Source of the DNA: Acholeplasmataceae bacterium
Lineage (GTDB): Bacteria > Bacillota_I > Bacilli_A > Acholeplasmatales > Acholeplasmataceae
DNA: 64,000 nt
Direction: 5' to 3'
NCBI GenBank assembly: GCA_963675245.1
Contig: OY775910.1
Location: forward strand, 1,088,001 to 1,152,000
Below the pieces are notes generated by a model. The model was not told where the DNA came from. It saw only the letters and a list, made by a program, of their open reading frames with translations, and made no database searches. This document shows, piece by piece, positions 1,544-47,237 of this stretch (within the stretch, counting starts at the first letter, position 1; every line of letters begins with the position of its first letter). A program made the position numbers and the translations under genes.

Positions 1544-1617
1544 GCGGGCGTAGTTCATCGGTAGAACCTCAGCCTTCCAAGCTGATGAGGTGGGTTCGAT
1601 TCCCATCGCCCGCTCCA
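1544..1617 (+). tRNA. tRNA-Gly(TCC)
   Basis: GCGGGCG...CGCCCGC-TCCA, anticodon loop CTTCCAA. Confidence 0.97.
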
Positions 1618-1629
1618 TAAGAGTAGAAT

Positions 1630-1662
1630 AGGTCTGATACATTCGGTATCATACCTTTTTTT
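1630..1662 (+). terminator. Intrinsic terminator carried by cassette 1 left end (terminates tRNA operon)
   Basis: AGGTCTGATAC-attcg-GTATCATACCT followed by T-run. Confidence 0.7.
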
Positions 1663-1770
1663 ATGCCTTTATTTAGCCGTTTCTATATTTTGACATTGTA
1701 CTAAAATAGATAATTCCATAGATGTGAAATACCCTGTTTTGATACAATTTTAGTAGAAATTAAGAATCCT

Positions 1771-1820
1771 TTACACGATTATATTTCAAAATACACGATT
1801 TAAATTGGATTTACACGATT
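1771..1820 (+). repeat. 3x (T/A)TACACGATT direct repeat, 20-bp period (putative recombinase arm sites)
   Basis: Copies at 1771, 1791, 1811; equivalent triads at 3511/3531/3551 and 5584/5604/5624. Confidence 0.8.
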
Positions 1821-1978: not shown

Positions 1979-2308
1979 ATGGAATATTTTGGATTAAAAT
2001 TACAAACTTTAAGAAAAAAAGCATCTATGTCACAAGACGATTTAGCTTCATTAATAGGTGTTAGTAGACAAGCTATTAGTAAATGGGAAAGATCAGATGG
2101 ACTACCAGATTTATACAATGTCAAAAAAATTGCAGAGGTCTTCAATATCACTATTGATGAATTAATGGATATTGAGATAAAACCAATTGATATGGACAAA
2201 GTTAAAACAAATAAATTAGCACTTGCATTTTTAACTGTACCAGGAGCAATTTTAGCGTTTTTATCAATTATTGCTTTAATCGAATTTTTAGGAGGTATAG
2301 TGTTATGA
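1979..2308 (+). CDS. XRE-family HTH regulator with C-terminal TM helix
   Basis: LRKKASMSQDDLASLIGVSRQAISKWE; AGGAGG RBS. Confidence 0.85.
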   Translation: MEYFGLKLQTLRKKASMSQDDLASLIGVSRQAISKWERSDGLPDLYNVKKIAEVFNITIDELMDIEIKPIDMDKVKTNKLALAFLTVPGAILAFLSIIALIEFLGGIVL

Positions 2309-3171
2309 TTTTTCAAGGCGGATTTACAATCTCAACATTGTTTGCTTTAGTAGTACCAGTTATAGGTGTAACATATTTATTCTCGCTATATAATCTTTAC
2401 ATAGGTAGAAATGTTTTAAAACATAAGTACATTATTCTAGGAATGAACTTTACATTCTTGTTTGGGTATATTATTATTTTGTTCAATATACCTGAATACA
2501 ATCACATTCCACTTATAGTATTATTGATTTTGATTTTAGCTATAATAGTTTTAGGTATTATTGGTGGGTTTTTGTATGAACAAGAACGAAGTCGTAATTA
2601 TATTGATAAGTATGCTCATTTAACAAAAAGATTACTTTTTGCTGTAAAATCGACATATGGATTTGTTGGTCTAGTTTTTATTGCATTCTTTTCTTATACT
2701 TTGTTGACACATGAAATTGAAGTCGTAAACAGAATTTCATATTATTTTGAACAGCCAGATAATGTTGATACTCCATTGTATGGTTATGTCGAGGTGTCTA
2801 CTGATGATGAAGTTACTATTGTTGTTGAAGGTATACATTTGGATTACTCTATTGAGGAGATTAAACAAGTTGAAGTTTACATAAACGATACCTTAGTCCA
2901 CACAAGTGTTAATATTGAAGGGTTCTTGACTAATGAAAATTACAATAGTGAGTATATCGTAATAATTGAAGAACAACCTTCTCAAGGATTTATGTTGAAT
3001 TATGTTTTCGATTATGACTTTGATTCTATGGAAGATTTTGGATCAACTGTTAATGTTAGTATAGTGCTAAGTACTCAGGATAATGTATTCACTTATGATT
3101 ATTCTAGTGTGGATTATAGTTGTGGTTATCAAAACAAGATAGTACCAATTTGGATAAAAGAAGAAAATTAG
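2305..3171 (+). CDS. Hypothetical membrane protein (~4 TM plus extracellular domain)
   Basis: 288-aa ORF, ATGA overlap with upstream HTH gene. Confidence 0.7.
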   Translation: MIFQGGFTISTLFALVVPVIGVTYLFSLYNLYIGRNVLKHKYIILGMNFTFLFGYIIILFNIPEYNHIPLIVLLILILAIIVLGIIGGFLYEQERSRNYIDKYAHLTKRLLFAVKSTYGFVGLVFIAFFSYTLLTHEIEVVNRISYYFEQPDNVDTPLYGYVEVSTDDEVTIVVEGIHLDYSIEEIKQVEVYINDTLVHTSVNIEGFLTNENYNSEYIVIIEEQPSQGFMLNYVFDYDFDSMEDFGSTVNVSIVLSTQDNVFTYDYSSVDYSCGYQNKIVPIWIKEEN

Positions 3172-3180
3172 ATGTTAGAT

Positions 3181-3375
3181 TTAGGGTTTGATGCCCAGTA
3201 TTTAATAGATAGTTGAATAACCTATTTTGATACAAAGAAATTACTACCTGAAAAATATCCGAAAATAAAAAGCCTAAACTAAGCCATAATTTAGGGGTGT
3301 AATTTTTTCGGGTGGGGGTGTAAAAATTTTGGCTAGGGGTGTAAAATTGTAGCAAAATAGGTCATACAACCCATA
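3181..3375 (+). repeat. Cassette right-end element, copy 1
   Basis: Homologous to 5262-5434; imperfect 24-bp inverted repeat 3212-3235/3347-3370 and 3x GGGGTGTAA at 3294, 3315, 3336. Confidence 0.85.
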
Positions 3376-3578
3376 AGAGTAGAATAGGTTTGATACAATT
3401 GTATCAGGCTTTTTTTTACGCTATATAGCGCCGTTTCTCCATTCGCCAATATTTTTCGAAACTAAAAAACATACTAGTTTTAAGGGGTTTTTGACATTTC
3501 GATAGAATTTCTACACGAGTACATTTTAAAAAATACGATTTAAAATGGTTTTACACGATTTATTATACAAAGATATCA

Positions 3579-3607
3579 TTGCACTTATTTTAATTCTATT
3601 GTATAAT
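3579..3607 (+). promoter_or_regulatory. Promoter of TA operon
   Basis: TTGCAC-N17-TATAAT. Confidence 0.6.
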
Positions 3608-3649
3608 TATATTAGTAAGAAAGTAGGAAAGTGAGAAAAAGGTGATATT

Positions 3650-3949
3650 ATGATTATAGAATTAAGAAAGAAATCGCAGATTACGATACCTAAAGAAATT
3701 GTTGATCAATTACATCTCCAAGAAGGAGATCATCTTGAGATATCAGTTAAGGATGGTGCAGTCCTACTAGAACCGGTGGCAATATATTCTAAATCGTATA
3801 TTCAAAAATTAGAAGATACTGTTATGAGAATCAGTGAAGAACCAACCAAGTATAATGTTGGTCCTTTTAAATCTGTGGAAGATGCTATTAAATATTTAGA
3901 AGAATCTGATGAAGAAACTGAAGCTGCAGATAAAGTTAATAAACAATGA
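3650..3949 (+). CDS. AbrB/MazE/SpoVT-family antitoxin
   Basis: SQITIPKEIVDQLHLQEGD motif; C-terminal GPFKSVEDAIKYL typical of antitoxins partnering RelE-like toxins. Confidence 0.85.
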   Translation: MIIELRKKSQITIPKEIVDQLHLQEGDHLEISVKDGAVLLEPVAIYSKSYIQKLEDTVMRISEEPTKYNVGPFKSVEDAIKYLEESDEETEAADKVNKQ

Positions 3950-4212
3950 GATACGAAATACTGTTTTCAAATAAATTTAAGAAATCTTTTTCTAAACTTG
4001 AACTTTATGAAAAGAAATTATTCTATAAAAAGCTATCTTTATTTGTTGAAAATCATCAGCATCCCAGCTTGAGAACAAAAAAGATTCAAGGTAGCGAGAT
4101 ATTGTTTGAATCTAGCATAAATATGTCAATTAGAGTTATTTGGACATTTAAGGATGAATCCCTAATATTGATGTTAGATATTGGTCACCATGATATATTG
4201 AAAAGATTATAA
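3946..4212 (+). CDS. RelE/ParE/YafQ-superfamily toxin
   Basis: FSNKFKKSF...HPSLRTKKIQG...RVIW...DIGHHD; ATGA coupling to antitoxin. Confidence 0.85.
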   Translation: MRYEILFSNKFKKSFSKLELYEKKLFYKKLSLFVENHQHPSLRTKKIQGSEILFESSINMSIRVIWTFKDESLILMLDIGHHDILKRL

Positions 4213-4216
4213 TGTT

Positions 4217-4251
4217 AAACTTTGGTTTTTTGAAAAAACCAGAGTTTTTTT
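4217..4251 (+). terminator. Terminator after TA operon
   Basis: AAACTTTGGTTTTT...AAAAACCAGAGTTT followed by T-run. Confidence 0.65.
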
Positions 4252-4374
4252 GTAGTGAATTATTTTTTGTAAAATGTTATAATGTAAGAAAAATCTTACA
4301 AAAATTGTTGTATGTACTTGGTGGATGGATTATAAGATATATAATAAAATGGAAGCATCAGAGGAGGAATGAAA

Positions 4375-5247
4375 ATGAAATTCGAAAAAAATCTAGAGTT
4401 ATTAAGAAAAAGAAAAGGATTATCTCAAGAAGATCTAGCTTTAACTATTGGTGTTTCTAGGCAAACTATTTATACATGGGAAGGCGGATTAAACTATCCC
4501 AATATTCTTATGTTAAAAAAAATTGCGAATGTACTAGATGTATCAACAGATGACTTGCTTAATGGGTATGATGTTAGTAAACTACCAAAAAGATTTAAAT
4601 CTGTTGAGCTAAACTACATATCGAAACGACAAGGTGCGATTAAGTATAAAGAAGTTCCAAATTGGTTTATACCATTAAAAGAGGAAGAAGAAGTATGTAC
4701 TGCGTTATACGATGATGGTATAAAAAGTTATTCATATCACTTAACCGTTTTGAATAAGATTCTTTTACATGATAATGAGGGATATGAAGTAATGGTAGAA
4801 GAATATGACCCCCAGTTAAACAAGACAAAAACCTATTCATTAATTATTAATGAAGTTAATGATGAACTATTCTTTTTGGGGAGAATTCACTTCGAAGATG
4901 GTATTAAATGCATTGAAACATTTAAAGATAAAAAGTTTTTGAATCACTGGGGAATTGGGAAACAGTTTTTAGGACAATCAATGATTTATGATAATGCAGA
5001 AAACTATGAACTAACCATTGATGGTAAAAAGCAAAAAGCTATTAAAATTAGCTATTTCGATCCGGATGGTACAGATGATCCAAAAAATTCATATTTTGAA
5101 GTATTTTTAAATCAAGAACTACAGTCTATATTCTGGCAAAGATATACCACAGGGGTGAAATCGAAGATTCAAATCAATATTGATGGAAAGCAATATGGTT
5201 TAGGTTACCAATCATTAACAGATAGAATAAATTTGCATGAGAATTGA
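4375..5247 (+). CDS. XRE-family HTH protein with uncharacterised C-terminal domain
   Basis: LRKRKGLSQEDLALTIGVSRQTIYTWE; GAGGAGG RBS favours the ATG at 4375. Confidence 0.8.
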   Translation: MKFEKNLELLRKRKGLSQEDLALTIGVSRQTIYTWEGGLNYPNILMLKKIANVLDVSTDDLLNGYDVSKLPKRFKSVELNYISKRQGAIKYKEVPNWFIPLKEEEEVCTALYDDGIKSYSYHLTVLNKILLHDNEGYEVMVEEYDPQLNKTKTYSLIINEVNDELFFLGRIHFEDGIKCIETFKDKKFLNHWGIGKQFLGQSMIYDNAENYELTIDGKKQKAIKISYFDPDGTDDPKNSYFEVFLNQELQSIFWQRYTTGVKSKIQINIDGKQYGLGYQSLTDRINLHEN

Positions 5248-5261
5248 TTTCTGGATAAATA

Positions 5262-5434
5262 GAAGGGTTGGATACCCTACAATAAGTTGATTAGTTGAAT
5301 AACCTATTTTGACACAAGAGAATGACTACTAAAAAAATTGAAAAACAAAACCTCTAAACTAAGCCATAATTTAGGGGTGTAATTTTTTAGGATGGGGGTG
5401 TAAAATTGTAGCAAAATAGGTCACACAACCCATA
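5262..5434 (+). repeat. Cassette right-end element, copy 2 (one 21-bp repeat unit fewer)
   Basis: Shares GTTGAATAACCTATTTTGA, CTAAACTAAGCCATAATTTAGGGGTGTAATTTTTT and GGGGTGTAAAATTGTAGCAAAATAGGTCA with copy 1. Confidence 0.85.
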
Positions 5435-6260
5435 TTGAAAGCATTAGTCAGATACGATTAAGTATCAGACCTTTTTGGTCTTAATTAAACTATTTCTTGT
5501 TTATAGTGTTGTGTTAAAATAGGTAGTTTTACAGGTAGAGAATAATCTATTTTAATACATTCTTAGTAGAAAATTTGAATCTTCAACACGATTACATTTT
5601 AAAATTCATGTTTGAAATCGATTTTACTCGATTAAAGTAAAATAACTCTTTGACTAGTATGACTTGACAAAATAACCTTTAAATCCAACAAAGAAAAAGC
5701 TATAATAGAAATAGTAATAATAAATTTTTAACATAGTATTTATAGGAGGTATTTGTAGTGAAATATGTATTTAAAGATTATGATATAAGATATTTTGCAG
5801 GAATTAAATTGCCAAATGGAATTGCAGTTGAAGATACCGATAATGAAGCAGTCCCCACATTATGGAATAGATTAGTTAGTGAAGTTTTACATCATATTCC
5901 GAACATGATCCATCCTAATAAATTCATAGGCTTAGAATGTTTTAGCCCTGACTTTAAGGAGACTAGAAGATTTGATTATTATGCTTTAGTTCAAACGGAA
6001 TCATTTGTAGATAATGAAGAACATTTTGTTGCAAAGAAACTACCAAAAGGGAAATATATTTGTTTCGAAATACTGTTTAATAATTTAGATGAAGAAATAA
6101 GGAAGTGTCATAATTATATACAATCTAATAACATTAAAGTTAATACTGAATTTGACTATACCGAGTATTTAGATGGAGAAGACTATAGTAATGAAAAAGC
6201 TAAAGTACATTTTAGTTTTTTATTGATTTAGAAGTATATGATTCAAACAAGTCATACAAC
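5430..6260 (+). mobile_element. Degenerate cassette 3 (GyrI-like gene)
   Basis: Left CCATA + GATAC/GTATC hairpin + degenerate ACACGATT triad; right end GTCATACAAC-GCATA at 6251-6265. Confidence 0.55.
5758..6231 (+). CDS. GyrI-like small-molecule/effector-binding protein
   Basis: VPTLWNRL, IGLE, FDYYA, LPKGKY motifs; AGGAGG RBS with GTG start. Confidence 0.8.
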   Translation: MKYVFKDYDIRYFAGIKLPNGIAVEDTDNEAVPTLWNRLVSEVLHHIPNMIHPNKFIGLECFSPDFKETRRFDYYALVQTESFVDNEEHFVAKKLPKGKYICFEILFNNLDEEIRKCHNYIQSNNIKVNTEFDYTEYLDGEDYSNEKAKVHFSFLLI

Positions 6261-6750
6261 GCATAAGGAAATCATATGACCGATACATTATATCGGTCTT
6301 TTTGATATATTTATAAAGCATGACTTTTTTTATGAAGATTGAAGTAATAAAGTTGTTATTACTAGAGGGTTTATAAAGTTTCTTGATAAATTACGTTATC
6401 TTATACTTTTCTAAAATGAGATTAGATGATAGAATGATTCAAAAGGAAATAGTAATTTTTAAGATAATTAATACAAAAACAAGTGTTACTTATCGGCTAG
6501 AAGAGGTCATGACATAATAAAATACTGAACCTTGGACAAGTGTTGGCTTTTTATTTCACATATAAGATTACTTTTTAGATGTCAATAGATAGAATTTTCA
6601 TATATGTAGGTATGTCATTTGAACATATCATATCTAATCTAAAGAAAATAGAATATCAAGTATTAATGATAATTGAAATAACAAAATGTTATAGAATGGA
6701 TACTAAATTAATTAAAATACAATCAACTATTAAATAGGAGAAAGAAGTTA

Positions 6751-7398
6751 ATGAAAATAGAATGGAGAAAACAGTATAAGAATCTTTATTTACCAAAAAC
6801 GAAACCGGAAATTATTGAAACAGATGAAATGGCTTACATTGTTATTGAAGGTGAAGGTAGTCCAGATAGCTTACAATTTTCACAAGCAGTTGAAGCGTTA
6901 TATGCATTATCATATAGTCTTAAAATGGCTCCAAAAAAAGGGTATAACATCGATGGGTATCAAGCATATACTGTATTCCCTTTAGAAGGTGTCTGGTGTC
7001 TGAATAAAGAAGGGATAAAGATGAATGCTAAAGGTATTTCAGCAAATGATTTAAGAGACTATTATATGTTCAAAATGATGATTAGACAACCAGAATTTAC
7101 GACTAAATCACTATTTGAAGATATCAAAAAAAATGCGTATAAAAAGAAAAAGAATGAAAGCATTCTTAAAGCTGAATATAAACGTATTAAAGAACCCATG
7201 AGTTGTCAAATGATGCATATTGGTCCATATAAGACAGAGCCCAAAACATTTAAAATAATGGAAGATTTTGTCATCAAAGAAGGATATTCTAGAAAAGAGA
7301 AATATCATAAAGAAATCTATATTTCAGATCCTAGAAAAGTTGCTCCTGATAAAATGAAAACAGTACTTAGATTTGAACTTAAAAAAGAGGTTTTATAG
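6751..7398 (+). CDS. GyrI-like domain protein (Lin2189-like subgroup)
   Basis: KNLYLPK, G.G.P, AVEALY..SY, PLEG.W, MIRQP, MHIGPY..E, H.EIYISDPR motifs. Confidence 0.85.
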   Translation: MKIEWRKQYKNLYLPKTKPEIIETDEMAYIVIEGEGSPDSLQFSQAVEALYALSYSLKMAPKKGYNIDGYQAYTVFPLEGVWCLNKEGIKMNAKGISANDLRDYYMFKMMIRQPEFTTKSLFEDIKKNAYKKKKNESILKAEYKRIKEPMSCQMMHIGPYKTEPKTFKIMEDFVIKEGYSRKEKYHKEIYISDPRKVAPDKMKTVLRFELKKEVL

Positions 7399-7619
7399 TA
7401 GGGTATTCAACCCTTAATAAAGGCTTTTCTGATGAGGTTTTATCAGACTTCTTTGTCACTTTTTTAATCCTTATCTTTTGTGAATAAAACACTTGATTTC
7501 TACGCTAATGAAATGATTAAAATCGACAAATTATTGTTGTAACAATGCATATTTGATAGAGGATGACCGTAGACTGGATTAATTATTGACTTTTTATACA
7601 ATTTATGATAAACTTTTTT

Positions 7620-7695
7620 AAAGATAAAGGCAAAACTAGAGAAATCTAGTGACGCAAAGCTAAAGGGTCTTGAATAAAGATAGCCAGTTACCAAC
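7620..7695 (+). promoter_or_regulatory. c-di-GMP-I (GEMM) riboswitch
   Basis: GGCAAAA-CTAGA-GAAA-TCTAG-TGACGCAAAGCTA-AAGGG...ATAGCCAGTTACC matches the GEMM consensus; overlapping terminator ACCAAC/GTTGGT+T-run (7690-7714). Confidence 0.9.
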
Positions 7696-7727
7696 ATTTT
7701 TTTGTTGGTTTTTTGTTTGGTGCAGAA

Positions 7728-10700
7728 ATGAAAAGAAAATTGGTTAGTAAAAAATTAATCATAATTACATTATTACTCATCCTAGTGATTAGTAATTTTG
7801 GTCTTTCATTCGCATACTGGTCAGGACATATTGAAAGTAGTGAAGTCAATGCAAACCCTTCAATTCCAATTGGTTCTTGGAATTATGAAGATGTTGCATT
7901 AACTGTCGCAACCTTCCTCAGTGATCATTCAGACGTTTTAGCACTGACAACAGAGACAGTAACCGTGAATGATAAAGCAGCGGTTGAAGCAGCACTTGGC
8001 GCATATGGTTTATTAAGTGAAGAAGCGAAAGCAGCATTAACCAGTGAAGAAGCGTTACTGATTGAGTTATTCAATGAAATCACAGCGTATGAGCATAGTG
8101 TGTTCCTAGACTTTGAAGGATATGCCTATGATTCAGGGCTGACAGGCACCGTCGAAATTGATGGTAGAACATGGTATGGAAATGGTGTCTACATATCTAA
8201 TGATCCAAGTTATGATGTATGGATGGATACGCGTTCCTTAGCATTAAAAACAGGAGCTTATTTCCAATCACAAGACTACTTCATAAATGGTATTGAAAAG
8301 ATTAGCATATACAGTGGCGCATTACACTTTGATAATGGCACAAGTTTCGCCTATAAGATAGAATATGAACTACAGTCAAATCCAGGGGTTTGGCTAACGG
8401 TACAAGAAGGTGGTTCTGATAAGATTATCAGCGTTATTTCAGGCACCCCATTAGCACATGCAGAAGTAAACGTGAATATTACTGAGGCAGTAAATATTAG
8501 ATTCACACCAGTAATTGGAAATACATCTGATTATATTAACTTAGACAATATTCGTATTTATGAACACGTGGTGACAAGCGCACTGGAAGCAGCGACTTTC
8601 AGAACAGTTTATGCAGGACCACTAGCATTGACAACAAGCACCGTACAAATCAGTGATAAAGCAGCAATTGAAGCAGCATTATCAGCCTATGATTTATTGA
8701 GTATCGATGCTCAAACAGCGTTAATAGCTGAAAAAGCATTACTTGATAGTATCATGGCAGCAATTGAAACACAAGAAGCATATGAAAGTGCAACAGAAGC
8801 AGTCGTAATCGCAGAAGGAAGTCTCTTACAAACAGATGTTGATAGCGCACAAACATTAGTTACTAGCTTACCAAATGGTACAGCGAAGACAGCGCTTCAA
8901 GACCGCTTAAATGACGTGCAAGATATCATAAACGACATAGCAACCTTCATCGGTGATCACACCAGTGTATTATCGTTAAGTGTAGGAACTGTCACAACAG
9001 GTGATAAAGCAGCGGTTGAAGCAGCTTTAGCAGACTATGCATTACTGAGTGAAAGTGTAAAGGCAGAACTCACAAATGAGAAAGCCTTACTTGATAGTTT
9101 ATTAGCAGAAATTAATAATCAAATACCGACGGCGACGTTGGTCCAAGCATTCAGAACGACTTACGCAGATACTTTAGCCTTAACCATAGGTACGGTACAA
9201 ATGAGTGATCAAGCAGCGATTGAATTAGCGTTAGAGGCATATGACGTATTAACTGCTGAAGCGAAAGCTGAACTCACAGCTGAAAAAGCATTATTGGATA
9301 GTTTAATCGTAGAAGTGATGATACTCAAAGCAACAGAAGCAGTCGTGATCGCAGAAGGAAGTCTTTTACAAGCAGATGTTGATAGCGCACAAACATTAGT
9401 TATTAGCTTACCAAATGGTACAGCGAAGATAGCGCTTCAAGATCGACTTGATGATGTCCAAAATATGATTGATCATTTAATAACAATTGCTGAAGAGGTC
9501 GCAACCTTCCTCAGTGATCATTCAGACGTTTTAGCACTGACAACAGAGACAGTAACCGTGAATGATAAAGCAGCGGTTGAAGCAGCACTTGGCGCATATG
9601 GTTTATTAAGTGAAGAAGCGAAAGCAGCATTAACCAGTGAAGAAGCGTTACTGATTGAGTTATTCAATGAAATCACAGCGTATGAGCATAGTGTGTTCCT
9701 AGACTTTGAAGGATATGCCTATGATTCAGGGCTGACAGGCACCGTCGAAATTGATGGTAGAACATGGTATGGAAATGGTGTCTACATATCTAATGATCCA
9801 AGTTATGATGTATGGATGGATACGCGTTCCTTAGCATTAAAAACAGGAGCTTATTTCCAATCACAAGACTACTTCATAAATGGTATTGAAAAGATTAGCA
9901 TATACAGTGGCGCATTACACTTTGATAATGGCACAAGTTTCGCCTATAAGATAGAATATGAACTACAGTCAAATCCAGGGGTTTGGCTAACGGTACAAGA
10001 AGGTGGTTCTGATAAGATTATCAGCGTTATTTCAGGCACCCCATTAGCACATGCAGAAGTAAACGTGAATATTACTGAGGCAGTAAATATTAGATTCACA
10101 CCAGTAATTGGAAATACATCTGATTATATTAACTTAGACAATATTCGTATTTATGAACACGTGGTGACAAGCGCACTGGAAGCAGCGACTTTCAGAACAG
10201 TTTATGCAGGACCACTAGCATTGACAACAAGCACCGTACAAATCAGTGATAAAGCAGCAATTGAAGCAGCATTATCAGCCTATGATTTATTGAGTATCGA
10301 TGCTCAAACAGCGTTAATAGCTGAAAAAGCATTACTTGATAGTATCATGGCAGCAATTGAAACACAAGAAGCATATGAAAGTGCAACAGAAGCAGTCGTA
10401 ATCGCAGAAGGAAGTCTCTTACAAACAGATGTTGATAGCGCACAAACATTAGTTACTAGCTTACCAAATGGTACAGCGAAGACAGCGCTTCAAGACCGCT
10501 TAAATGACGTGCAAGATATCATAAACGACATAGCAACCTTCATCGGTGATCACACCAGTGTATTATCGTTAAGTGTAGGAACTGTCACAACAGGTGATAA
10601 AGCAGCGGTTGAAGCAGCTTTAGCAGACTATGCATTACTGAGTGAAAGTGTAAAGGCAGAACTCACAAATGAGAAAGCCTTACTTGATAGTTTATTAGCA

Positions 10701-11654
10701 GAAATTAATAATCAAATACCGACGGCGACGTTGGTCCAAGCATTCAGAACGACTTACGCAGATACTTTAGCCTTAACCATAGGTACGGTACAAATGAGTG
10801 ATCAAGCAGCGATTGAATTAGCGTTAGAGGCATATGACGTATTAACTGCTGAAGCGAAAGCTGAACTCACAGCTGAAAAAGCATTATTGGATAGTTTAAT
10901 CGTAGAAGTGATGATACTCAAAGCAACAGAAGCAGTCGTGATCGCAGAAGGAAGTCTTTTACAAGCAGATGTTGATAGCGCACAAACATTAGTTATTAGC
11001 TTACCAAATGGTACAGCGAAGATAGCGCTTCAAGATCGACTTGATGATGTCCAAAATATGATTAACGTGCTAGCTGCTGCTAATGTTGATGATTTGATCA
11101 CGGCTATACCTAGTGTGGGAGAAATCTCACTTAGCGATGAATCGCAAATTGTCGCAGCAAGAGTTGCATATGATATTTTAACGATAGCACAACAATCATT
11201 AGTCACAAATGAAGCAATATTATCATCAGCAGAAACGCAACTGACCTCATTACAAACTGCTACTGCTGCAGTTGTGAAAGCAGAAGAAAGTCTCTTACAA
11301 GTAGATGTCAATAGCGCACAAACATTAGTTACTAACCTACCAAATGGCACATCAAGAATAGCACTTCAAAATAGGTTAAATGCTGTTCAAGATGTGATTG
11401 ATGTTGAATCGGCAAGAACAATCATCATTAATTATTTTGCTGCAAACTCAGTTGTAGTATCAAGACTCAATAGCAATGCTATAAAAGAAAATGCAGTCTT
11501 GACAAAATCAAATGAAATCGTCAATGGGCTTGGTGTTAACATTACGATCACAAATTCTGTTTATAACAGTCGAACTAGTTCAACTTACACCATACAAGTT
11601 GTGAAGAATGGTGCAAACACATCGTTTGTTGTAGTTGTTACATTTACAAGATAA
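7728..11654 (+). CDS. Large exported surface protein with SipW-type signal-like N-terminus, Ala-rich helical repeats and duplicated beta-sandwich domain
   Basis: Signal peptide ending SFAYWS...IPIGSW; internal 531-aa period duplication. Confidence 0.8.
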   Translation: MKRKLVSKKLIIITLLLILVISNFGLSFAYWSGHIESSEVNANPSIPIGSWNYEDVALTVATFLSDHSDVLALTTETVTVNDKAAVEAALGAYGLLSEEAKAALTSEEALLIELFNEITAYEHSVFLDFEGYAYDSGLTGTVEIDGRTWYGNGVYISNDPSYDVWMDTRSLALKTGAYFQSQDYFINGIEKISIYSGALHFDNGTSFAYKIEYELQSNPGVWLTVQEGGSDKIISVISGTPLAHAEVNVNITEAVNIRFTPVIGNTSDYINLDNIRIYEHVVTSALEAATFRTVYAGPLALTTSTVQISDKAAIEAALSAYDLLSIDAQTALIAEKALLDSIMAAIETQEAYESATEAVVIAEGSLLQTDVDSAQTLVTSLPNGTAKTALQDRLNDVQDIINDIATFIGDHTSVLSLSVGTVTTGDKAAVEAALADYALLSESVKAELTNEKALLDSLLAEINNQIPTATLVQAFRTTYADTLALTIGTVQMSDQAAIELALEAYDVLTAEAKAELTAEKALLDSLIVEVMILKATEAVVIAEGSLLQADVDSAQTLVISLPNGTAKIALQDRLDDVQNMIDHLITIAEEVATFLSDHSDVLALTTETVTVNDKAAVEAALGAYGLLSEEAKAALTSEEALLIELFNEITAYEHSVFLDFEGYAYDSGLTGTVEIDGRTWYGNGVYISNDPSYDVWMDTRSLALKTGAYFQSQDYFINGIEKISIYSGALHFDNGTSFAYKIEYELQSNPGVWLTVQEGGSDKIISVISGTPLAHAEVNVNITEAVNIRFTPVIGNTSDYINLDNIRIYEHVVTSALEAATFRTVYAGPLALTTSTVQISDKAAIEAALSAYDLLSIDAQTALIAEKALLDSIMAAIETQEAYESATEAVVIAEGSLLQTDVDSAQTLVTSLPNGTAKTALQDRLNDVQDIINDIATFIGDHTSVLSLSVGTVTTGDKAAVEAALADYALLSESVKAELTNEKALLDSLLAEINNQIPTATLVQAFRTTYADTLALTIGTVQMSDQAAIELALEAYDVLTAEAKAELTAEKALLDSLIVEVMILKATEAVVIAEGSLLQADVDSAQTLVISLPNGTAKIALQDRLDDVQNMINVLAAANVDDLITAIPSVGEISLSDESQIVAARVAYDILTIAQQSLVTNEAILSSAETQLTSLQTATAAVVKAEESLLQVDVNSAQTLVTNLPNGTSRIALQNRLNAVQDVIDVESARTIIINYFAANSVVVSRLNSNAIKENAVLTKSNEIVNGLGVNITITNSVYNSRTSSTYTIQVVKNGANTSFVVVVTFTR
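7905..11063 (+). repeat. Near-exact 1566-bp intragenic tandem duplication (7905-9470 and 9498-11063)
   Basis: Identical at every position compared by eye; period 1593 bp; 27-bp unique spacer. Confidence 0.95.
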
Positions 11655-42559: not shown

Positions 42560-42633
42560 ATTAAAAAAAATGTCAATTAGACACTTGAATGGTAAAATTG
42601 TTTCATAAAAATAACCTAAAGGAAAACTATATT

Positions 42634-43371
42634 ATGGTTAAAATATATGAGTTTTATACTGAGCTAAGAGACTCAAACCCCAAAATCTTTAGAACAATAC
42701 AAGTGATTTCCAAAATCACAGTAGCTGAATTTGTATATATTCTGTTATCGTTGTATGACATGCAAGCCACACACCTGTTTAAAGTCATTGTTCCAAAGGG
42801 ACAAACTCTCGTTGAAGCATATAAAAGAAAAATAGGGAATGACTTTGATGAAGTAACATTTAAAAATGAACATCCAGACATTTCTAATGTCAGATATCGA
42901 TATGAACTGCTTGATATCATTGATGATTTTCCAGAAAGAGAAAATGATGTCGTTTTAAACGTAACAAAAGAAAAGCTAAAACAAGCGATATCAATCATAG
43001 GAGAACAAATGGTATTATGGTATGACTTTGGGGATGATTGGTTTGTTGATATTAAACTCATCAATATTATTGAGACCGAAGATGATGTGATAACACCCAA
43101 TGTATTAAAAGGAGCAGGTTTTGGCATTATTGAAGACTGTGGTGGTTCATGGCGATTAAATGATATTATCATTGCATTTCAGAACAAAAAGGGGAAATTA
43201 TACAAGGAGATCTGTGATTGGCTAGATATAGATGATTTTGATTTTTCTAAATTTGATATTGATGAGATGAATAAAAGGCTACAAGTCATCCCTCAAATCT
43301 ATAAACGAAGTTATGAAAAAAAGATAGTACCTTCACAAGAAGAGATAGATTACATTGAAAGAAGATATTAA
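42634..43371 (+). CDS. Plasmid pRiA4b ORF-3 family protein
   Basis: IFRTIQV, HLF, YDFGDDW, EDCGG. Confidence 0.85.
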   Translation: MVKIYEFYTELRDSNPKIFRTIQVISKITVAEFVYILLSLYDMQATHLFKVIVPKGQTLVEAYKRKIGNDFDEVTFKNEHPDISNVRYRYELLDIIDDFPERENDVVLNVTKEKLKQAISIIGEQMVLWYDFGDDWFVDIKLINIIETEDDVITPNVLKGAGFGIIEDCGGSWRLNDIIIAFQNKKGKLYKEICDWLDIDDFDFSKFDIDEMNKRLQVIPQIYKRSYEKKIVPSQEEIDYIERRY

Positions 43372-43374
43372 CAT

Positions 43375-43414
43375 AAAAAAGTTCCTATCGGAGAAATCTC
43401 CAAGGAACTTTTTT
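43375..43414 (+). terminator. Intrinsic terminator
   Basis: AAAAAAGTTCCT...AGGAACTTTTTT. Confidence 0.7.
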
Positions 43415-43523
43415 GATTGATCCAACAAACCATCTAATAAATTAAAAAACTGAAATTAAAGTAAAAAGGATGTTATATGAATAGTATATGATAGAGCACT
43501 TTTTGTGATTGGAGGTTTATTGA

Positions 43524-44495
43524 TTGAACATACATCCGTTAGATTCATTAATCATGCAATATCTTGCAGAAAAAGATATTACAAGAGGTTCATTCGAATT
43601 ATATGACACCATTTTGAAACAATTCACGACATACCTAAAAGAACATCACATACTATTCGCGAAGACAAGTGATATCATCAATTATCGACAATGGAAAAGA
43701 AATCAAGGGTATTCTACGCGTTGGATTTATCATCAAATGAGTGCAATTAAGGGACTCTATCAATATTTAAAATATAATCAAAAAAGATTAAATCTATCAG
43801 AAGAATATGCAAACGACATTACGGAACTCATAAAAAACGAACGTATTAAAAAAGGTATTTCAAAACCAATATTAACGATTGATCAAGCAAAACATTTAAT
43901 ATTATGTAGTAAAGAAAACCGAAAGTATATTTGGCATTATCGTGATCACGCAATGCTTTATCTGATGTTAACGACAGGTATGAGAAGTGTTGAATTAAGA
44001 CGTGCTAAAAAGAAAGACTTAAAAATAATTGAAAACCAATCAATATTATATATACAAGGTAAAGGTAGACAAATAGCAAATGAGTATGTCAAAATCACGC
44101 CAAGTGTTAAGCGTGCTATTGATGAATATCTAAAGAAAAGAAAAGATAAGAATCCTTATCTATTTGTATCACATTCTAAGCATACGGATACGCCATATCT
44201 GTCAAGAACATTTTTCACTAGAATGCTTAAACGTGTATTATCATCATGTGATTTAACTTATACAAAGATAAAACCCCACTCTTTAAGACATACTGCTGCC
44301 ACATTTAACCTACTTAGAGGTGGTTCCCTAGAACAGACCAAACAGTTCATGAGACACACTAATATATCTACGACACTTGTCTATGCTCATCATGTGAAAC
44401 GATTGAAGGATGACTCGGTGAATCAAATTGAAAACTATATTTTAAATGAAGATATATATCATTATCATGATGAATACATCATCATTGATCTATGA
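43524..44495 (+). CDS. Tyrosine recombinase (XerC/D-like)
   Basis: RDHAML..TGMRSVE, GKG, HSLRH, MRH, LVY. Confidence 0.92.
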   Translation: MNIHPLDSLIMQYLAEKDITRGSFELYDTILKQFTTYLKEHHILFAKTSDIINYRQWKRNQGYSTRWIYHQMSAIKGLYQYLKYNQKRLNLSEEYANDITELIKNERIKKGISKPILTIDQAKHLILCSKENRKYIWHYRDHAMLYLMLTTGMRSVELRRAKKKDLKIIENQSILYIQGKGRQIANEYVKITPSVKRAIDEYLKKRKDKNPYLFVSHSKHTDTPYLSRTFFTRMLKRVLSSCDLTYTKIKPHSLRHTAATFNLLRGGSLEQTKQFMRHTNISTTLVYAHHVKRLKDDSVNQIENYILNEDIYHYHDEYIIIDL

Positions 44496-45448
44496 GAGAT
44501 GAGGAAAAGATAATGGAAGCACATCCGCTAAAAGAATTATGCGAACGATATATTTTAGATCATAATTTTTCTGAATCGACTATCAATTCGTATCGAATAG
44601 TATTTAAGAAATATATAAATTTTTTGATAGAACATGATATTGAATACGCGAAAACAAGCGATGTTATTAAATACCGTGAAAATAAGAGGAAAAAAGGTTA
44701 TTCGAGCCACTATATCTATGTGCACATCTCTGCGTTAAAAGGGTTATATCGATATTTAAGACATAATCGATCTCGTTTTAATCTACGAGATGATTATGCA
44801 TATGATATTATGATGCCTATAAAAAATGAACGAATTAAGTATCATATAAAAAAACCAATTTTAACGATTGAACAAGCTAAACATATGATCCTTCATACGA
44901 AGAGAAATAGAACGTCAATTTGGCAATACCGCGATCACGCAATTATTTATTTGATGTTAACTGCTGGCATTAGAAGATATGAAATTAAAGAAGCGAAAAA
45001 AGAAGATTTTCAAATAGTTCATGGTGAATGTTTGTTATATATAAGACATAATAACGAAAGAACAAATGATGATTTTGTTAAAATCGCACCGGGCGTCAAT
45101 GATGCAATTAACGATTATTTATATATGCGTAAAGATGACAACCCCTATTTGTTTGTGACGACTAAAAACACGTCACCTAACCAACATCTATCTAGAACAT
45201 TCTTTAGAGAGATGTTTAGAAGAGTCATTAAAACATGTGGCTTAGAAAATATGGGAATTACACCACACTGTTTAAGACACACAGCGGGAGTGATCAACCT
45301 ACTTAGAGGCGGTTCATTAGAACAGACAAGACAACTTTTAAGACATAAAGATATTAAATCGACCATCATCTATAAAGAGCATATCGAACGGATGAATGAT
45401 GATTCAGAATTACAAATCGAAAAATTCATACTCGGAGACAAGGGTTAA
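44492..45448 (+). CDS. Tyrosine recombinase, tandem paralog
   Basis: RDHAII..AGIRRYE, HCLRH, LRH, IIY. Confidence 0.9.
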   Translation: MRDEEKIMEAHPLKELCERYILDHNFSESTINSYRIVFKKYINFLIEHDIEYAKTSDVIKYRENKRKKGYSSHYIYVHISALKGLYRYLRHNRSRFNLRDDYAYDIMMPIKNERIKYHIKKPILTIEQAKHMILHTKRNRTSIWQYRDHAIIYLMLTAGIRRYEIKEAKKEDFQIVHGECLLYIRHNNERTNDDFVKIAPGVNDAINDYLYMRKDDNPYLFVTTKNTSPNQHLSRTFFREMFRRVIKTCGLENMGITPHCLRHTAGVINLLRGGSLEQTRQLLRHKDIKSTIIYKEHIERMNDDSELQIEKFILGDKG

Positions 45449-45571
45449 GTTTCAAATGTAAAAGATAACATCCTAAATTGATTAAAATATCTATAAATAT
45501 TAGATTTCAAACAAATAAAACGTTTAAAACTAAATTTTTATGGTAAAATACAATTGGTGGGAGGTTATAAC

Positions 45572-46732
45572 ATGAAAATTTTAAAAATTAGAGTGTCAGG
45601 TTTTAAGTTATTAGAGGATAACTTTGAAATTGATTTTTTGAGTAAAGCGAGAGTAGGTGCGAATGATAAAGAAGATGAAATCATCGAATATTATAACAAT
45701 CTATACATACCAACAACGATTGTTTTTACAGGGAAGAATGCGAGCGGTAAATCATCTGTTTTATCACTATTAACATTTGTGAATGAATTGCTGAATGAAG
45801 GGCGTATTAGATTTAATGTGCTTGATTTCAGAGATGATCTCATGCATTTAGATCTATTTTTTGCATTAGATAATAAAATTTACAATTACAAAACAGATAT
45901 CATTAAACCTGAAACAAAATTACTTGATAAAGCCAATTATTGTAGTTTTAGAAATGAACGATTACTGGATAAAAAATATTCTAAAACCTATGGGAAAAAT
46001 ATTCTCAACAATGATTTTAATAAAGTTACTTTATATAAATCAGATGTTGGAGATACATCATTACTTTATAAACTTGTAGCGAGAAAATCACTATTTATAA
46101 ATTCAAATAACTGGTTTCACGATACTTCAATTGAGTCAATATTTAAGTTGTTTGAAATGTTTGATGTTAATGAAAATTTGATGATAAAAATTGCCAGATT
46201 ATTTGATGATAGCATTGATAAATTCACGTATGATAAGAATAAAAGGTTATATACCTTGTCATTAAAGGGGTTAGGAAAGAAAAATTATAGTGAATCTGAA
46301 ATGCGGATTTTATTATCAGACGGTACGATTAAAGGAATGACGATGTTTGGTCTAATTATTGCAGTATTAAAAACTGGAGGAAGTTTAATGATTGATGAAA
46401 TTGAGAATAGTTTTCATAAAAATTTAGTTGAAAATATCATCATGATTTTTAATGATAAACGGATCAACAAAAATAAAGCGAATCTTTTATTTAGCACCCA
46501 TTATGTTGAAATTCTTGACATCTTTAGAAGAAGAGACAATATCTTTATCACATCAAAAAAAGATGGTTATATTACCAATTGTAATCTATATGAAGACTAT
46601 GATGAAAGAATCGAATTATCCAAAAGTAATCAATTTAACAATAACACCTTTGGTACCCTTATCAATTATGATCAATTGATGGCATTAAAGAAAGAACTCA
46701 TCAATGAAATACCTGGTTTTAATAGAGGGTAA
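45572..46732 (+). CDS. AAA_21 ABC-type ATPase (RloA-like)
   Basis: GKNASGKS, LSDGT, MIDEIE, FSTH. Confidence 0.85.
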   Translation: MKILKIRVSGFKLLEDNFEIDFLSKARVGANDKEDEIIEYYNNLYIPTTIVFTGKNASGKSSVLSLLTFVNELLNEGRIRFNVLDFRDDLMHLDLFFALDNKIYNYKTDIIKPETKLLDKANYCSFRNERLLDKKYSKTYGKNILNNDFNKVTLYKSDVGDTSLLYKLVARKSLFINSNNWFHDTSIESIFKLFEMFDVNENLMIKIARLFDDSIDKFTYDKNKRLYTLSLKGLGKKNYSESEMRILLSDGTIKGMTMFGLIIAVLKTGGSLMIDEIENSFHKNLVENIIMIFNDKRINKNKANLLFSTHYVEILDIFRRRDNIFITSKKDGYITNCNLYEDYDERIELSKSNQFNNNTFGTLINYDQLMALKKELINEIPGFNRG

Positions 46733-47237
46733 CACAGATAAAGCACTTATTGAGATATTAATGGGTAAGGGGATATTTAAAATAAGTGCAGATGATATGT
46801 TGGACTTGCGACCACATCAAAAAAGACAGATTGATACGTATTTAGCAGCGTTAATTAGACAGTTGAATGCCGATGAAAAGGTTAAAATCATTAGAATTGG
46901 GGATAAAATATCTGACAACTTGCGTATACCAAAAGATATCATAAGCAAAATTGATTCAATCATTAAGTATTGCACAAAGCCAGAATTTGAAATGTTACTT
47001 ATCATGGCGGAAAACATGACAGATGTGTATGAAAAACAAAAAAGTACAGTAAAACCGAAAACATTTGCTAAAACGTTTATTGTGTTTAATAAAAAAAGGT
47101 ATAATAATACGCCTGATTGGGTACATATGTATTTCGACAAATGGCTTAATAAAGACATCAAAGAATTACTTAAAGCGTATAAGCAATATAAGAAACATGA
47201 AACAGATGAGATGTATCTTTATGATTTAGTAAAGTGA
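46704..47237 (+). CDS. TOPRIM/RloB-like partner protein
   Basis: LIEGNTD, IGD, CTKPEFEMLLI. Confidence 0.6.
   Translation: MKYLVLIEGNTDKALIEILMGKGIFKISADDMLDLRPHQKRQIDTYLAALIRQLNADEKVKIIRIGDKISDNLRIPKDIISKIDSIIKYCTKPEFEMLLIMAENMTDVYEKQKSTVKPKTFAKTFIVFNKKRYNNTPDWVHMYFDKWLNKDIKELLKAYKQYKKHETDEMYLYDLVK

Follow-up and report, generated by a model that had tools for sequence, protein, structure and literature searches.

A conserved 24-bp box with an optional inverted partner as the putative right attachment region of recombinase-less, tRNA-targeting gene cassettes in an Acholeplasmataceae bacterium

Background

A stretch of 64,000 nucleotides from an Acholeplasmataceae bacterium (assembly GCA_963675245.1, contig OY775910.1, positions 1,088,001 to 1,152,000; hereafter the window) carries a row of gene cassettes behind a tRNA gene, two of which end in an element of approximately 160 bp bounded by a 24-bp imperfect inverted repeat. 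This element is probably the right attachment region of non-autonomous cassettes that target tRNA genes, the arms of the repeat being putative half-sites for serine recombinases that would be supplied in trans. We describe here the anatomy of the element, its conservation, its position at the crossover, the lack of a pairing constraint on its arms and the linkage of serine recombinase gene pairs to the cassette ends.

Arrays of cassettes that lack an integrase of their own are known from the integrons of Proteobacteria and from CIME or SCC composites in a few Firmicutes. A description of the present system in Acholeplasma-like or Izemoplasma-like bacteria was not found in open-access papers and preprints.

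Results and discussion

The cassette array behind tRNA-Gly(tcc)

The source genome is a single contig of 1.63 Mb with 34% G+C. The array of the window comprises three or four cassettes and starts behind tRNA-Gly(tcc), which ends at position 1617 and is the last gene of a four-gene Glu-Arg-Pro-Gly tRNA cluster identified by ARAGORN and Rfam. Its features, all on the + strand, are as follows.

1544..1617, +, tRNA-Gly(tcc) (ARAGORN, Rfam); the array starts at its 3' CCA (putative attB-side half-site)
1618..1662, +, 13-nt spacer, hairpin GGTCTGATAC...GTATCATACC and T-run, terminator-like; right half of the junction site formed by the 5' hairpin arm
1696..1747, +, head-to-head pair of 24-bp boxes with a 4-bp centre, 52 bp in all; attP-like or circle-junction-like
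1772..1820, +, three TACACGATT repeats at 20 bp spacing, upstream of the cassette 1 genes
1979..3171, +, cassette 1 cargo: XRE-type HTH protein (1979-2308) and a 288-aa protein without clear family (2305-3171)
3184..3211, +, mimic of a tRNA 3' end: T-arm-like box GGGTTTGATGCCC and 15 nt, up to the start of the left arm
3212..3235, +, left arm (IR-L), putative optional inverted copy of the half-site
3292..3346, +, 21-bp tandem repeat with GGGGTGTAA at 3294, 3315 and 3336; the last copy adjoins the right arm
3347..3370, +, right arm (IR-R), the universal box beside the crossover, TTGTAGCAAAATAGGTCATACAAC
3347..3398, +, 52-bp junction of cassettes 1 and 2: IR-R, CCAT and 24 bp ending in TTTGATACAA; the dyad centre is the CA of CCA
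3371..5429, +, cassette 2, with a hairpin at 3386-3411 and degenerate ACACGATT repeats at 3512-3560
3650..5247, +, cassette 2 genes: MazE-like (3650-3949), small ORF (3946-4212) and XRE-domain gene (4369-5247)
5265..5429, +, cassette 2 right end: T-arm-like box 5265-5277, IR-L 5294-5317, two 21-bp repeats, IR-R 5406-5429
5430..6260, +, cassette 3: hairpin, head-to-head site 5509-5560, degenerate repeats 5585-5634
5758..6260, +, cassette 3 cargo and end: Cass2/GyrI-like gene (5758-6231); right arm truncated to its last 16 nt (6245-6260) and followed by GCA; left arm absent
6261..7415, +, distal part of the locus: terminator-like hairpin 6278-6298, GyrI-like gene 6751-7398, inverted T-arm-like box 7393-7415

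All three units follow one plan, in which a CCA is succeeded by a 13-nt spacer, a terminator-like hairpin with a T-run, three TACACGATT repeats and one to three genes. Behind their genes, units 1 and 2 have the inverted-repeat element, whose terminal ...CAAC lies immediately 5' of the next CCA. The distal part of the locus may be a fourth, decayed cassette or else native flank. The cargo is of an accessory kind according to Pfam (XRE-type regulators, a MazE-like antitoxin with a small partner ORF, and Cass2/GyrI-like ligand-binding proteins), and no recombinase gene was found among the cassette ORFs. Terminator-like sites were predicted at 3386-3411 and 6278-6298. Promoter-like sites were no commoner than in shuffled sequences (38 versus 41.2) and therefore no cassette promoters are claimed. 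An Rfam scan at gathering thresholds returned only tRNAs and one c-di-GMP-I riboswitch.

The same right end recurs at two other tRNA genes of the source genome. Behind tRNA-Leu(gag) it is present together with the left repeats and a second cassette comes next, and at tRNA-Ser(gga) it closes an island of 8 kb; no recombinase gene was found at either locus.

Anatomy of the inverted-repeat element

The original prediction, made from the letters of the window, described an element of about 160 bp bounded by a 24-bp imperfect inverted repeat, and a repeat search of the window recovered it in full: the arms at 3212-3235 and 3347-3370 in cassette 1 are complementary at 21 of 24 positions (88%), and those at 5294-5317 and 5406-5429 in cassette 2 at 19 of 24 (79%). 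The reverse complement of the right arm, searched for with up to 3 mismatches in the 64-kb window, matches only at 3212, 3347 and 5406, and the number of matches expected by chance is 0.00 (100 shuffles). The related box that was said to lie upstream of the left arm is present in both cassettes (3184-3196 and 5265-5277), and the inverted relation noted between the surroundings of 5263 and 7415 proved to extend over 23 nt at 91% (5263-5285 against 7393-7415). The element was also correctly placed close behind the cargo genes, as its onset is 10-16 nt past their stop codons, which end at 3171 and 5247. The spacer between the arms holds 2.6 copies of a 21-bp tandem repeat, and the right arm extends into a 52-bp dyad with the sequence past the crossover.

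The sequence at the outer ends is GTTGAAT...ATACAAC (+ strand) or GTTGTAT...ATTCAAC (- strand), that is, GTTG...CAAC on both. The polarity is thus GTT...AAC, as originally proposed, and not the AAC...GTT of integron attC sites, in which RYYYAAC stands at the 5' side (R'') and GTTRRRY at the 3' side (R'); here both strands have the opposite order.

The arms are conserved as sequence and not as a hairpin

One explanation for the inverted repeat would be that it acts as a single-stranded hairpin in the manner of attC, the folded site being the substrate of an integron- or Xer-type tyrosine recombinase encoded elsewhere. Several features speak for such a site: the cassettes lack an integrase, the site follows the cargo stop codon, the cargo is of the type found in chromosomal integrons (GNAT, toxin-antitoxin, Cass2), and in single-strand DNA folding both strands of both copies pair their arms, albeit with the modest z scores of -2.79, -2.80, -2.36 and -1.90. 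Conservation of the pairing, however, was not seen. Among 33 distinct copies with an arm spacing of 105-113 bp, aligned from the window, relatives, viral contigs and unrelated public genomes, standard pairs occupy 79.5% of the cells as against 79.3% when the 3' letters are shuffled among the sequences; a two-sided, compensatory change occurs in one cell only, which was equalled in 162 of 500 shuffles. Half of the arm pairs (12/24) vary solely through loss of the pair, the pair at arm position 8 is formed in 0/33 copies and that at position 5 in 3/33.

Across the copies the right arm hardly varies, the left arm is subject to drift, and each arm has letters specific to it. Moreover, the left arm was found in 16 of the 73 independent right ends with sufficient upstream sequence and is absent from the other 57, as it is from cassette 3 of the window. 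Because the pairing is under no constraint, the right arm is nearly invariant and the left arm is optional, we read the arms as putative protein-binding boxes that are conserved as sequence and not as structure. The proposal of repeated core-type recombinase boxes, which formed part of the original prediction, fits well with the arm-specific letters in an otherwise conserved sequence, with the position at the crossover and with the recurrence of the box in other orientations and spacings, whereas the hairpin, together with the covariation that it called for, fails on the 33 copies. Taken with the reversed polarity and with the recombinase content described below, an attC-like hairpin is highly improbable.

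The crossover and the 52-bp dyad

The claim that the element end adjoins the crossover holds for every copy: all 43 have NCA directly behind the right arm (36 CCA, 5 ACA, 1 GCA and 1 TCA), a count for which the copies were found without requiring those letters but which is partly biased, the arrays having first been located through the CCA pattern. Past the CA, junctions in the window and in relatives have a spacer and then the 5' arm of a homologous hairpin at a fixed offset. In the relative G002 (related genomes and viral records are given by G-numbers), an island begins directly past the CCA of tRNA-Gly(tcc) and ends in the right-end box, which is followed by the hairpin.

Mirror symmetry of the outer 10 nt of the junction appears only at a site length of 52 bp. 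At this length at least 8 of the 10 positions agree in 26 of 77 independent junctions, while other lengths from 46 to 59 give only 0-4 junctions of 77 with such symmetry, and the centre of the 52-bp dyad is the CA of the tRNA-type CCA. The half-site on the tRNA side does not mirror the half-site past the crossover. Head-to-head boxes with a 4-bp centre, likewise 52 bp in length, occur in the left regions of cassettes at 1696-1747 and 5509-5560 of the window and also in G053, G041, G008 and one viral contig. In four sequencing runs the contigs end where the element is repeated, and the joints in them were few, with sides of 21 nt and a low depth; neither an excised circle nor an empty site was seen in these contigs.

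The tRNA mimic and the possibility of a mini-insertion

The box upstream of the left arm has the consensus GGGTTCGATACCC and resembles the T-arm of a tRNA, 24 of 28 copies having no more than 2 mismatches when tallied by eye. It starts 28 nt 5' of the left arm, which compares with 27 nt from the T-arm of the real tRNA-Gly to the half-site after CCAT. The DNA examined held 34 T-arm-like boxes, of which 22 are followed by the left arm, 4 belong to real tRNA-Gly genes followed by the hairpin and 8 are chance-like. Read in this manner, the 160 bp with the mimic to the left and the CCA and hairpin to the right would follow the grammar of a tRNA-side junction plus a distal junction that enclose almost nothing.

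Such a layout raises the question of a MITE-like end or mini-cassette, that is, of a 160-bp unit integrated by the same recombinase into a cassette-borne copy of a tRNA 3' end, as a passenger with no role in mobility. The part of the original prediction that pointed to a MITE-like end is half right, in that the arms of the inverted repeat lie as the left and right ends of a very small integrated unit would; if abutted, they would yield a 52-bp site like those at 1696-1747 and 5509-5560, and the T-arm mimic lies at the right distance on the left. A homologue of cassette 1 that lacks the element was found in CP017949.1, and an 8-bp direct repeat, GGTTTGAT, is present at 3186-3193 and 3388-3395, where it flanks the larger segment 3186-3395 in this one comparison only. 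Other observations speak against the proposal. A genome-wide search of the source genome found boxes only at cassette ends and none dispersed away from them; all 22 T-arm mimics are followed by the left arm and an empty site, with the mimic directly followed by the hairpin, was seen in 0 of 22. Furthermore, the segment absent from CP017949.1 includes the mimic and the CCA spacer and is therefore no clean excision, and the right arm is found at every junction, with or without the left arm. We regard a mini-insertion of this kind as unlikely.

CP017949.1 is a record labelled as a plasmid that holds an array with five right ends, and its gene table names no integrase or recombinase between 8 and 93 kb. 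The cassette 1 homologue in it, 80% identical over 1.4 kb, lies behind the right end of another cassette and not behind a tRNA; the hairpin comes directly next, with nothing present of the T-arm mimic, the two arms, the repeats or the CCA spacer. The genes can therefore stay in place without the element, and it follows from the position of the homologue and from its missing element that cassettes occupy different contexts and that the element can be lost. A BLAST search of phage records with positions 3150-3650 gave no match, and among plasmid records CP017949.1 was the single one found.

Distribution of the right end and of the arrays

A 27-nt pattern made up of the right arm and CCA was searched for with up to 2 mismatches in 101 related genomes, alongside a reversed control. 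The pattern was matched in 34 of the 101 genomes, which belong to two families, and the control in none. In public genomes, taken one per species, the exact pattern occurs in at least 129 stretches; among the matches listed nearly all are from Mycoplasmatota, with titles that name mostly Acholeplasmataceae, Izemoplasmatales/Izimaplasma, Mariniplasma and Mycoplasmatota.

Eight arrays in five relatives stand behind the same tRNA cluster or behind tRNA-Leu(gag) and have the same left repeats and right ends with different cargo. The Glu-Arg-Pro-Gly cluster heads arrays in G041, G003, G002 and G053 as well, clusters of TACACGATT-type repeats mark the left ends of cassettes in relatives, and the MazE-like pair of cassette 2 recurs in cassettes of G041 and G053. 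A Pfam scan of the 105 ORFs in the eight arrays detected no PF00589 or PF00239 domain; three of the ORFs are IS transposases.

Tyrosine recombinases

The source genome encodes six tyrosine recombinases, namely XerD, XerC, two small Xer-like proteins and an adjacent pair at window positions 43524-45448. For an attC-like site, the four Xer-like recombinases besides XerC and XerD would be candidates, yet the best scores against the integron integrase model TIGR02249 were 158 and 132 bits, below the cut-off of 265, and came from XerD and XerC themselves. A canonical dif-like site lies near the skew maximum, the replication terminus and XerD, and is unlike the cassette junction; Xer/dif recombination was accordingly rejected as a source of the arrays. 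With the six proteins as queries, no match was obtained near 30 right ends or eight arrays, with the exception of broken pieces in G002. For the accessory tyrosine recombinase at genome position 993346, the 100 relatives yielded no orthologue above 38% identity, the accessory tyrosine recombinases of the source genome have no close orthologues in array-rich genomes (38% identity or less), and the pair within the window is without visible link to the array. In G053, a genome with 11 right ends, the only tyrosine recombinases are XerC, XerD and one short fragment (three PF00589 matches), which speaks against the attC-like hairpin.

A second reading with a tyrosine recombinase is a lambda-type tyrosine integrase acting in trans, with the 24-bp boxes as core and the GGGGTGTAA and ACACGATT repeats as oppositely oriented arm-type sites. 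The arrangement itself invites it, in that three phased direct repeats stand on each side of the crossover in inverted orientation with GTGTA in common, the target is the 3' end of a tRNA, and the G002 island at the same site holds two tyrosine recombinase gene fragments. Phased direct repeats on both sides of a crossover are generally a better fit to the arm sites of a tyrosine integrase, to a replication origin or to iterons, and to our knowledge large serine integrases need no flanking direct repeats. The enzyme itself, however, was not found: there is no tyrosine recombinase in the eight arrays, at the 30 right-end loci or in the complete 30-kb element of G053 described below, and to this are added the short list of such genes in G053 and the low identities of the accessory enzymes in relatives. 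Half-sites of 24 bp with a 4-bp centre also do not fit the cores of tyrosine recombinases, so far as we know them. A lambda-type integrase is for these reasons improbable.

The repeats can also be viewed as iterons and the inverted repeat as the hairpin of a relaxase or Rep protein, which would make the element an oriT or the replication origin of a circle. The inverted repeat does lie beside a conserved block of 25 nt, three or four phased repeats and, past the hairpin, an A+T-rich stretch; islands without an integrase that hitch a ride by an oriT alone are described in a recent preprint (10.64898/2026.01.13.699239). Against this, no relaxase or Rep family was found among the Pfam-scanned ORFs of the window, the arrays, the viral contigs and the G053 element, and the presence of the right arm at the recombination junction in every copy is needless for an oriT, which could still be a second role. 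As the primary function of the element an oriT or origin is extremely improbable.

Paired serine recombinases at cassette ends

We therefore return to the favoured reading, in which the boxes are half-sites of serine recombinases. The first unit behind tRNA-Leu(gag) in G053 is 30 kb long; it starts with CCA, the hairpin and four ACACGATT repeats and ends with three 21-bp repeats and the right-end box, and no further junction was found inside. This element carries two adjacent genes for large serine recombinases of 437 aa and 529 aa, with Resolvase, Recombinase and Zn_ribbon_recom domains, and no tyrosine recombinase, all three PF00589 matches of G053 being elsewhere. A small HTH/zinc-ribbon protein is encoded ahead of the serine recombinases. 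A box match beside the recombinase pair was discarded, as it lies inside coding sequence. A second serine recombinase pair of G053, near 475 kb, has no box in the surrounding 14 kb.

Of the 101 genomes, 16 encode orthologues of the 437-aa protein (at least 50% identity), at 17 loci in all, and the larger partner is usually adjacent. Five of the 17 loci (G053, G007, G003, G057 and G081) have a right end on the same strand, 2-21 kb downstream, and at the G015 locus a box lies 138 nt upstream of the gene and not downstream. At the other 11 loci a right end with up to 2 mismatches is absent from the contig, many such contigs being short, and three of these 11 are in genomes without any right end. 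Counted by genome, a serine recombinase match is present in about 18 of the 34 box-bearing genomes and in about 17 of the 67 others, figures that come from related and hence not independent genomes. Among the viral records, G101 has two right ends with the serine recombinase pair ahead of them and G105 has one, and in G102 a single gene for a 449-aa serine recombinase ends 81 nt before the box. The serine recombinases score best against the CcrB, CcrC and XisF models, all far below the cut-offs (136.5, 114.8 and 271.5 bits for CcrB, with a cut-off of 900).

The linkage of serine recombinases to right ends is suggestive, and the enzyme is probably a pair of large serine recombinases that act in trans. 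Serine recombinases were not found in the source genome, and because of this its cassettes are at present probably immobile passengers.

A model for cassette insertion

The identity of the enzyme, its action in trans and the roles of the left arm and of the repeats are parts of the model that we infer from these comparisons. Cassettes would insert one behind another at the 3' CCA of a tRNA, each bringing a terminator-like hairpin, ACACGATT repeats, its own genes and a near-invariant 24-bp right box that abuts the crossover. The right arm would be bound in double-stranded form as the half-site of a site-specific recombinase, and together with the 24 bp past the crossover it would make up the 52-bp dyad, which has the invariant CA at its centre. 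The left arm may be a second, inverted half-site that, with the T-arm mimic, imitates the junction on the tRNA side, in which case the 160 bp would represent a minimal attL...attR pair around one to three 21-bp repeats. The cassettes themselves being devoid of a recombinase, the enzyme would be provided by large relatives that have the same ends and two adjacent large serine recombinase genes.

Comparison with known systems

The nearest counterparts in terms of organisation are the CIMEs next to ICESt1 and ICESt3 of Streptococcus thermophilus, which have kept attL and attR, have lost or never possessed the genes for integration and transfer and accrete in tandem (PMC5704250). The cassettes resemble them in the lack of integration and transfer genes, in tandem stacking at one site and in att sites common to complete elements: a box in direct orientation with CCA bounds each cassette and also ends the 30-kb element of G053, and genes for integration or transfer are absent from the window cargo, as are PF00589 and PF00239 domains from the array ORFs. 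They differ from CIMEs in being small (0.8-2 kb in the window) and numerous, in using several tRNA CCA ends and in a junction module of about 400 bp with a T-arm mimic; the enzymes linked to them are paired large serine recombinases and not a tyrosine integrase.

In terms of enzymes the likeness is to the staphylococcal SCC (SCCmec composite islands), in which paired large serine recombinases are accompanied by recombinase-less cassettes in tandem at the 3' end of one gene, the junctions have very short direct repeats and the element ends carry inverted repeats. The two systems share a recombinase pair in a large element, tandem cassettes without recombinase, a short junction repeat and terminal inverted repeats. 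In contrast to SCC and to the enterococcal cassette chromosomes (ECC; PMC6222049), the target here is the 3' end of tRNA genes (Gly(tcc), Leu(gag), Ser(gga)) and not rlmH, the host belongs to the Mycoplasmatota, and the recombinases are not Ccr equivalogs, with 136 and 115 bits against the CcrB cut-off of 900.

As to the site, the attP and attB sites of serine integrases such as Bxb1, phiC31 and the A118 type are imperfect dyads of about 50 bp with a fixed central dinucleotide. The 52-bp dyad has a central CA in 43 of 43 copies, a figure with some ascertainment bias, and differs from such sites in the additional phased direct repeats, in the odd half on the tRNA side and in the hybrid sites that are apparently reused for insertions.

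Integrons share with the arrays an ordered set of small integrase-less cassettes, a site after the stop codon with imperfect inverted repeats of variable spacing, and similar cargo. Apart from the differences from attC in polarity and pairing, there is neither an IntI nor an integrase adjacent to an array, the cassettes seem to bring their own terminator and upstream repeats, and the head of the array is a tRNA gene. It is conceivable, although we consider it doubtful, that the arrays constitute an integron-like platform with different chemistry, in which the CCA of certain tRNA genes is the dock, small cassettes with expression signals of their own have composite sites that imitate the tRNA 3' end and a heteromeric pair of large serine recombinases borne by occasional large helpers acts in trans. 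Were this so, the inverted repeat would supply each cassette with a second dock, behind which the next one could insert, and the recombinases of helper elements would shuffle, insert and excise cassettes in trans. The arrays described here would add a widespread system to the small-genome Mycoplasmatota of sediments, lakes and bioreactors, in which the routes of gene gain are poorly known. The compact sites (52-bp dyad and tRNA end) with the candidate paired serine recombinases may provide genetic tools for such organisms, and the 27-nt box may serve as a simple annotation marker that delimits accessory gene cassettes.

Variation of the short repeats

The number of 21-bp repeats, from one to three, tracks the spacing of the arms, which is 39, 67, 88-89 or 105-112 bp. 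The repeats exist in the variants GTGTAA, GTGCGTAA, GTGCCAA and GTGCTAA, which are uniform inside one element and differ between elements. Another class of right end, with AAAACTCCGT-type repeats, is present in G003.

Right-end sequences of the cassettes

Within the ~160-bp element that forms the right end of the cassettes, a block of ~25 nt, CTAAACTAAGCCATAATTTAGGGGTG, was almost unchanging in 33 copies from many genomes (alignment A1, the alignment of distinct element copies), and it was present too in right ends that do not have the left arm.

Window 3260-3300 (alignment A1 columns 55-90): ~25-nt block CTAAACTAAGCCATAATTTAGGGGTG

A distinct right-end class was found in the related genome G003, in which three AAAACTCCGT-type repeats at ~21 bp spacing lead into ...GACA, after which come the usual hairpin and ACACGATT repeats of the left end. 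The cassette family seems to have one left-end type that is common to several right-end types.

Analysed G003 region, positions 11200-11350 (reverse complement): AAAACTCCGT-type right end

Cargo genes and a public record with a cassette array

The array locus behind tRNA-Gly(tcc) includes the following genes, the last of which may be either cargo of a decayed fourth cassette or native flank.

Window 3650-4212: MazE-like antitoxin gene and overlapping 88-aa ORF
Window 5758-6231: GyrI-like small-molecule-binding protein
Window 6751-7398: GyrI-like small-molecule-binding protein

No Pfam match was obtained for the 88-aa ORF, which with the MazE-like gene probably constitutes a toxin-antitoxin pair; this pair recurs in cassettes of two related genomes (G041 and G053) at ~77% DNA identity, with other genes alongside. 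The GyrI-like protein at 5758-6231 was also a match to Cass2, a family that takes its name from integron cassettes, and the same family is among the cargo of an array in G003.

The public record CP017949.1, a plasmid by its label, combines a cassette array with housekeeping-type genes (pnp, adhE, clpB) and a block of phage-like character, and across 3.2 kb it is 99.8% identical to a chromosomal locus of G008, another related genome.

Riboswitch downstream of the array

Just past the cassette array, a c-di-GMP-I riboswitch directly precedes a long ORF, the product of which is probably a surface protein controlled by c-di-GMP.

Window 7619-7695: c-di-GMP-I riboswitch (67.8 bits; gathering score 35)
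Window 7713-11654: 1313-aa ORF with SbsC_C and Endotoxin_C2-like repeats

Tyrosine recombinase loci and dif-like site

The window contains a pair of neighbouring genes for tyrosine recombinases of 323 and 318 aa, both with a SAM-like N-terminal domain. An AAA_21 ATPase and a PRiA4_ORF3-like gene border the pair, and the region is possibly a small island with a mobile or defence character. G008 has a pair that resembles it, and no link was seen between the pair in the window and the cassette sites.

Window 42589-47237: tyrosine recombinase pair with bordering genes

Beyond the window, the same genome has a small island at 992800-995300, where tRNA-Gln has its 3' end. In it are genes for an Xer-like recombinase of 293 aa and an XRE-type protein, together with a 27-nt motif that is repeated; this island is unrelated to the cassette sites. 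A canonical dif-like 28-mer, also outside the window, is located at genome position 1494095, where it adjoins the GC-skew maximum, with XerD 3 kb away.
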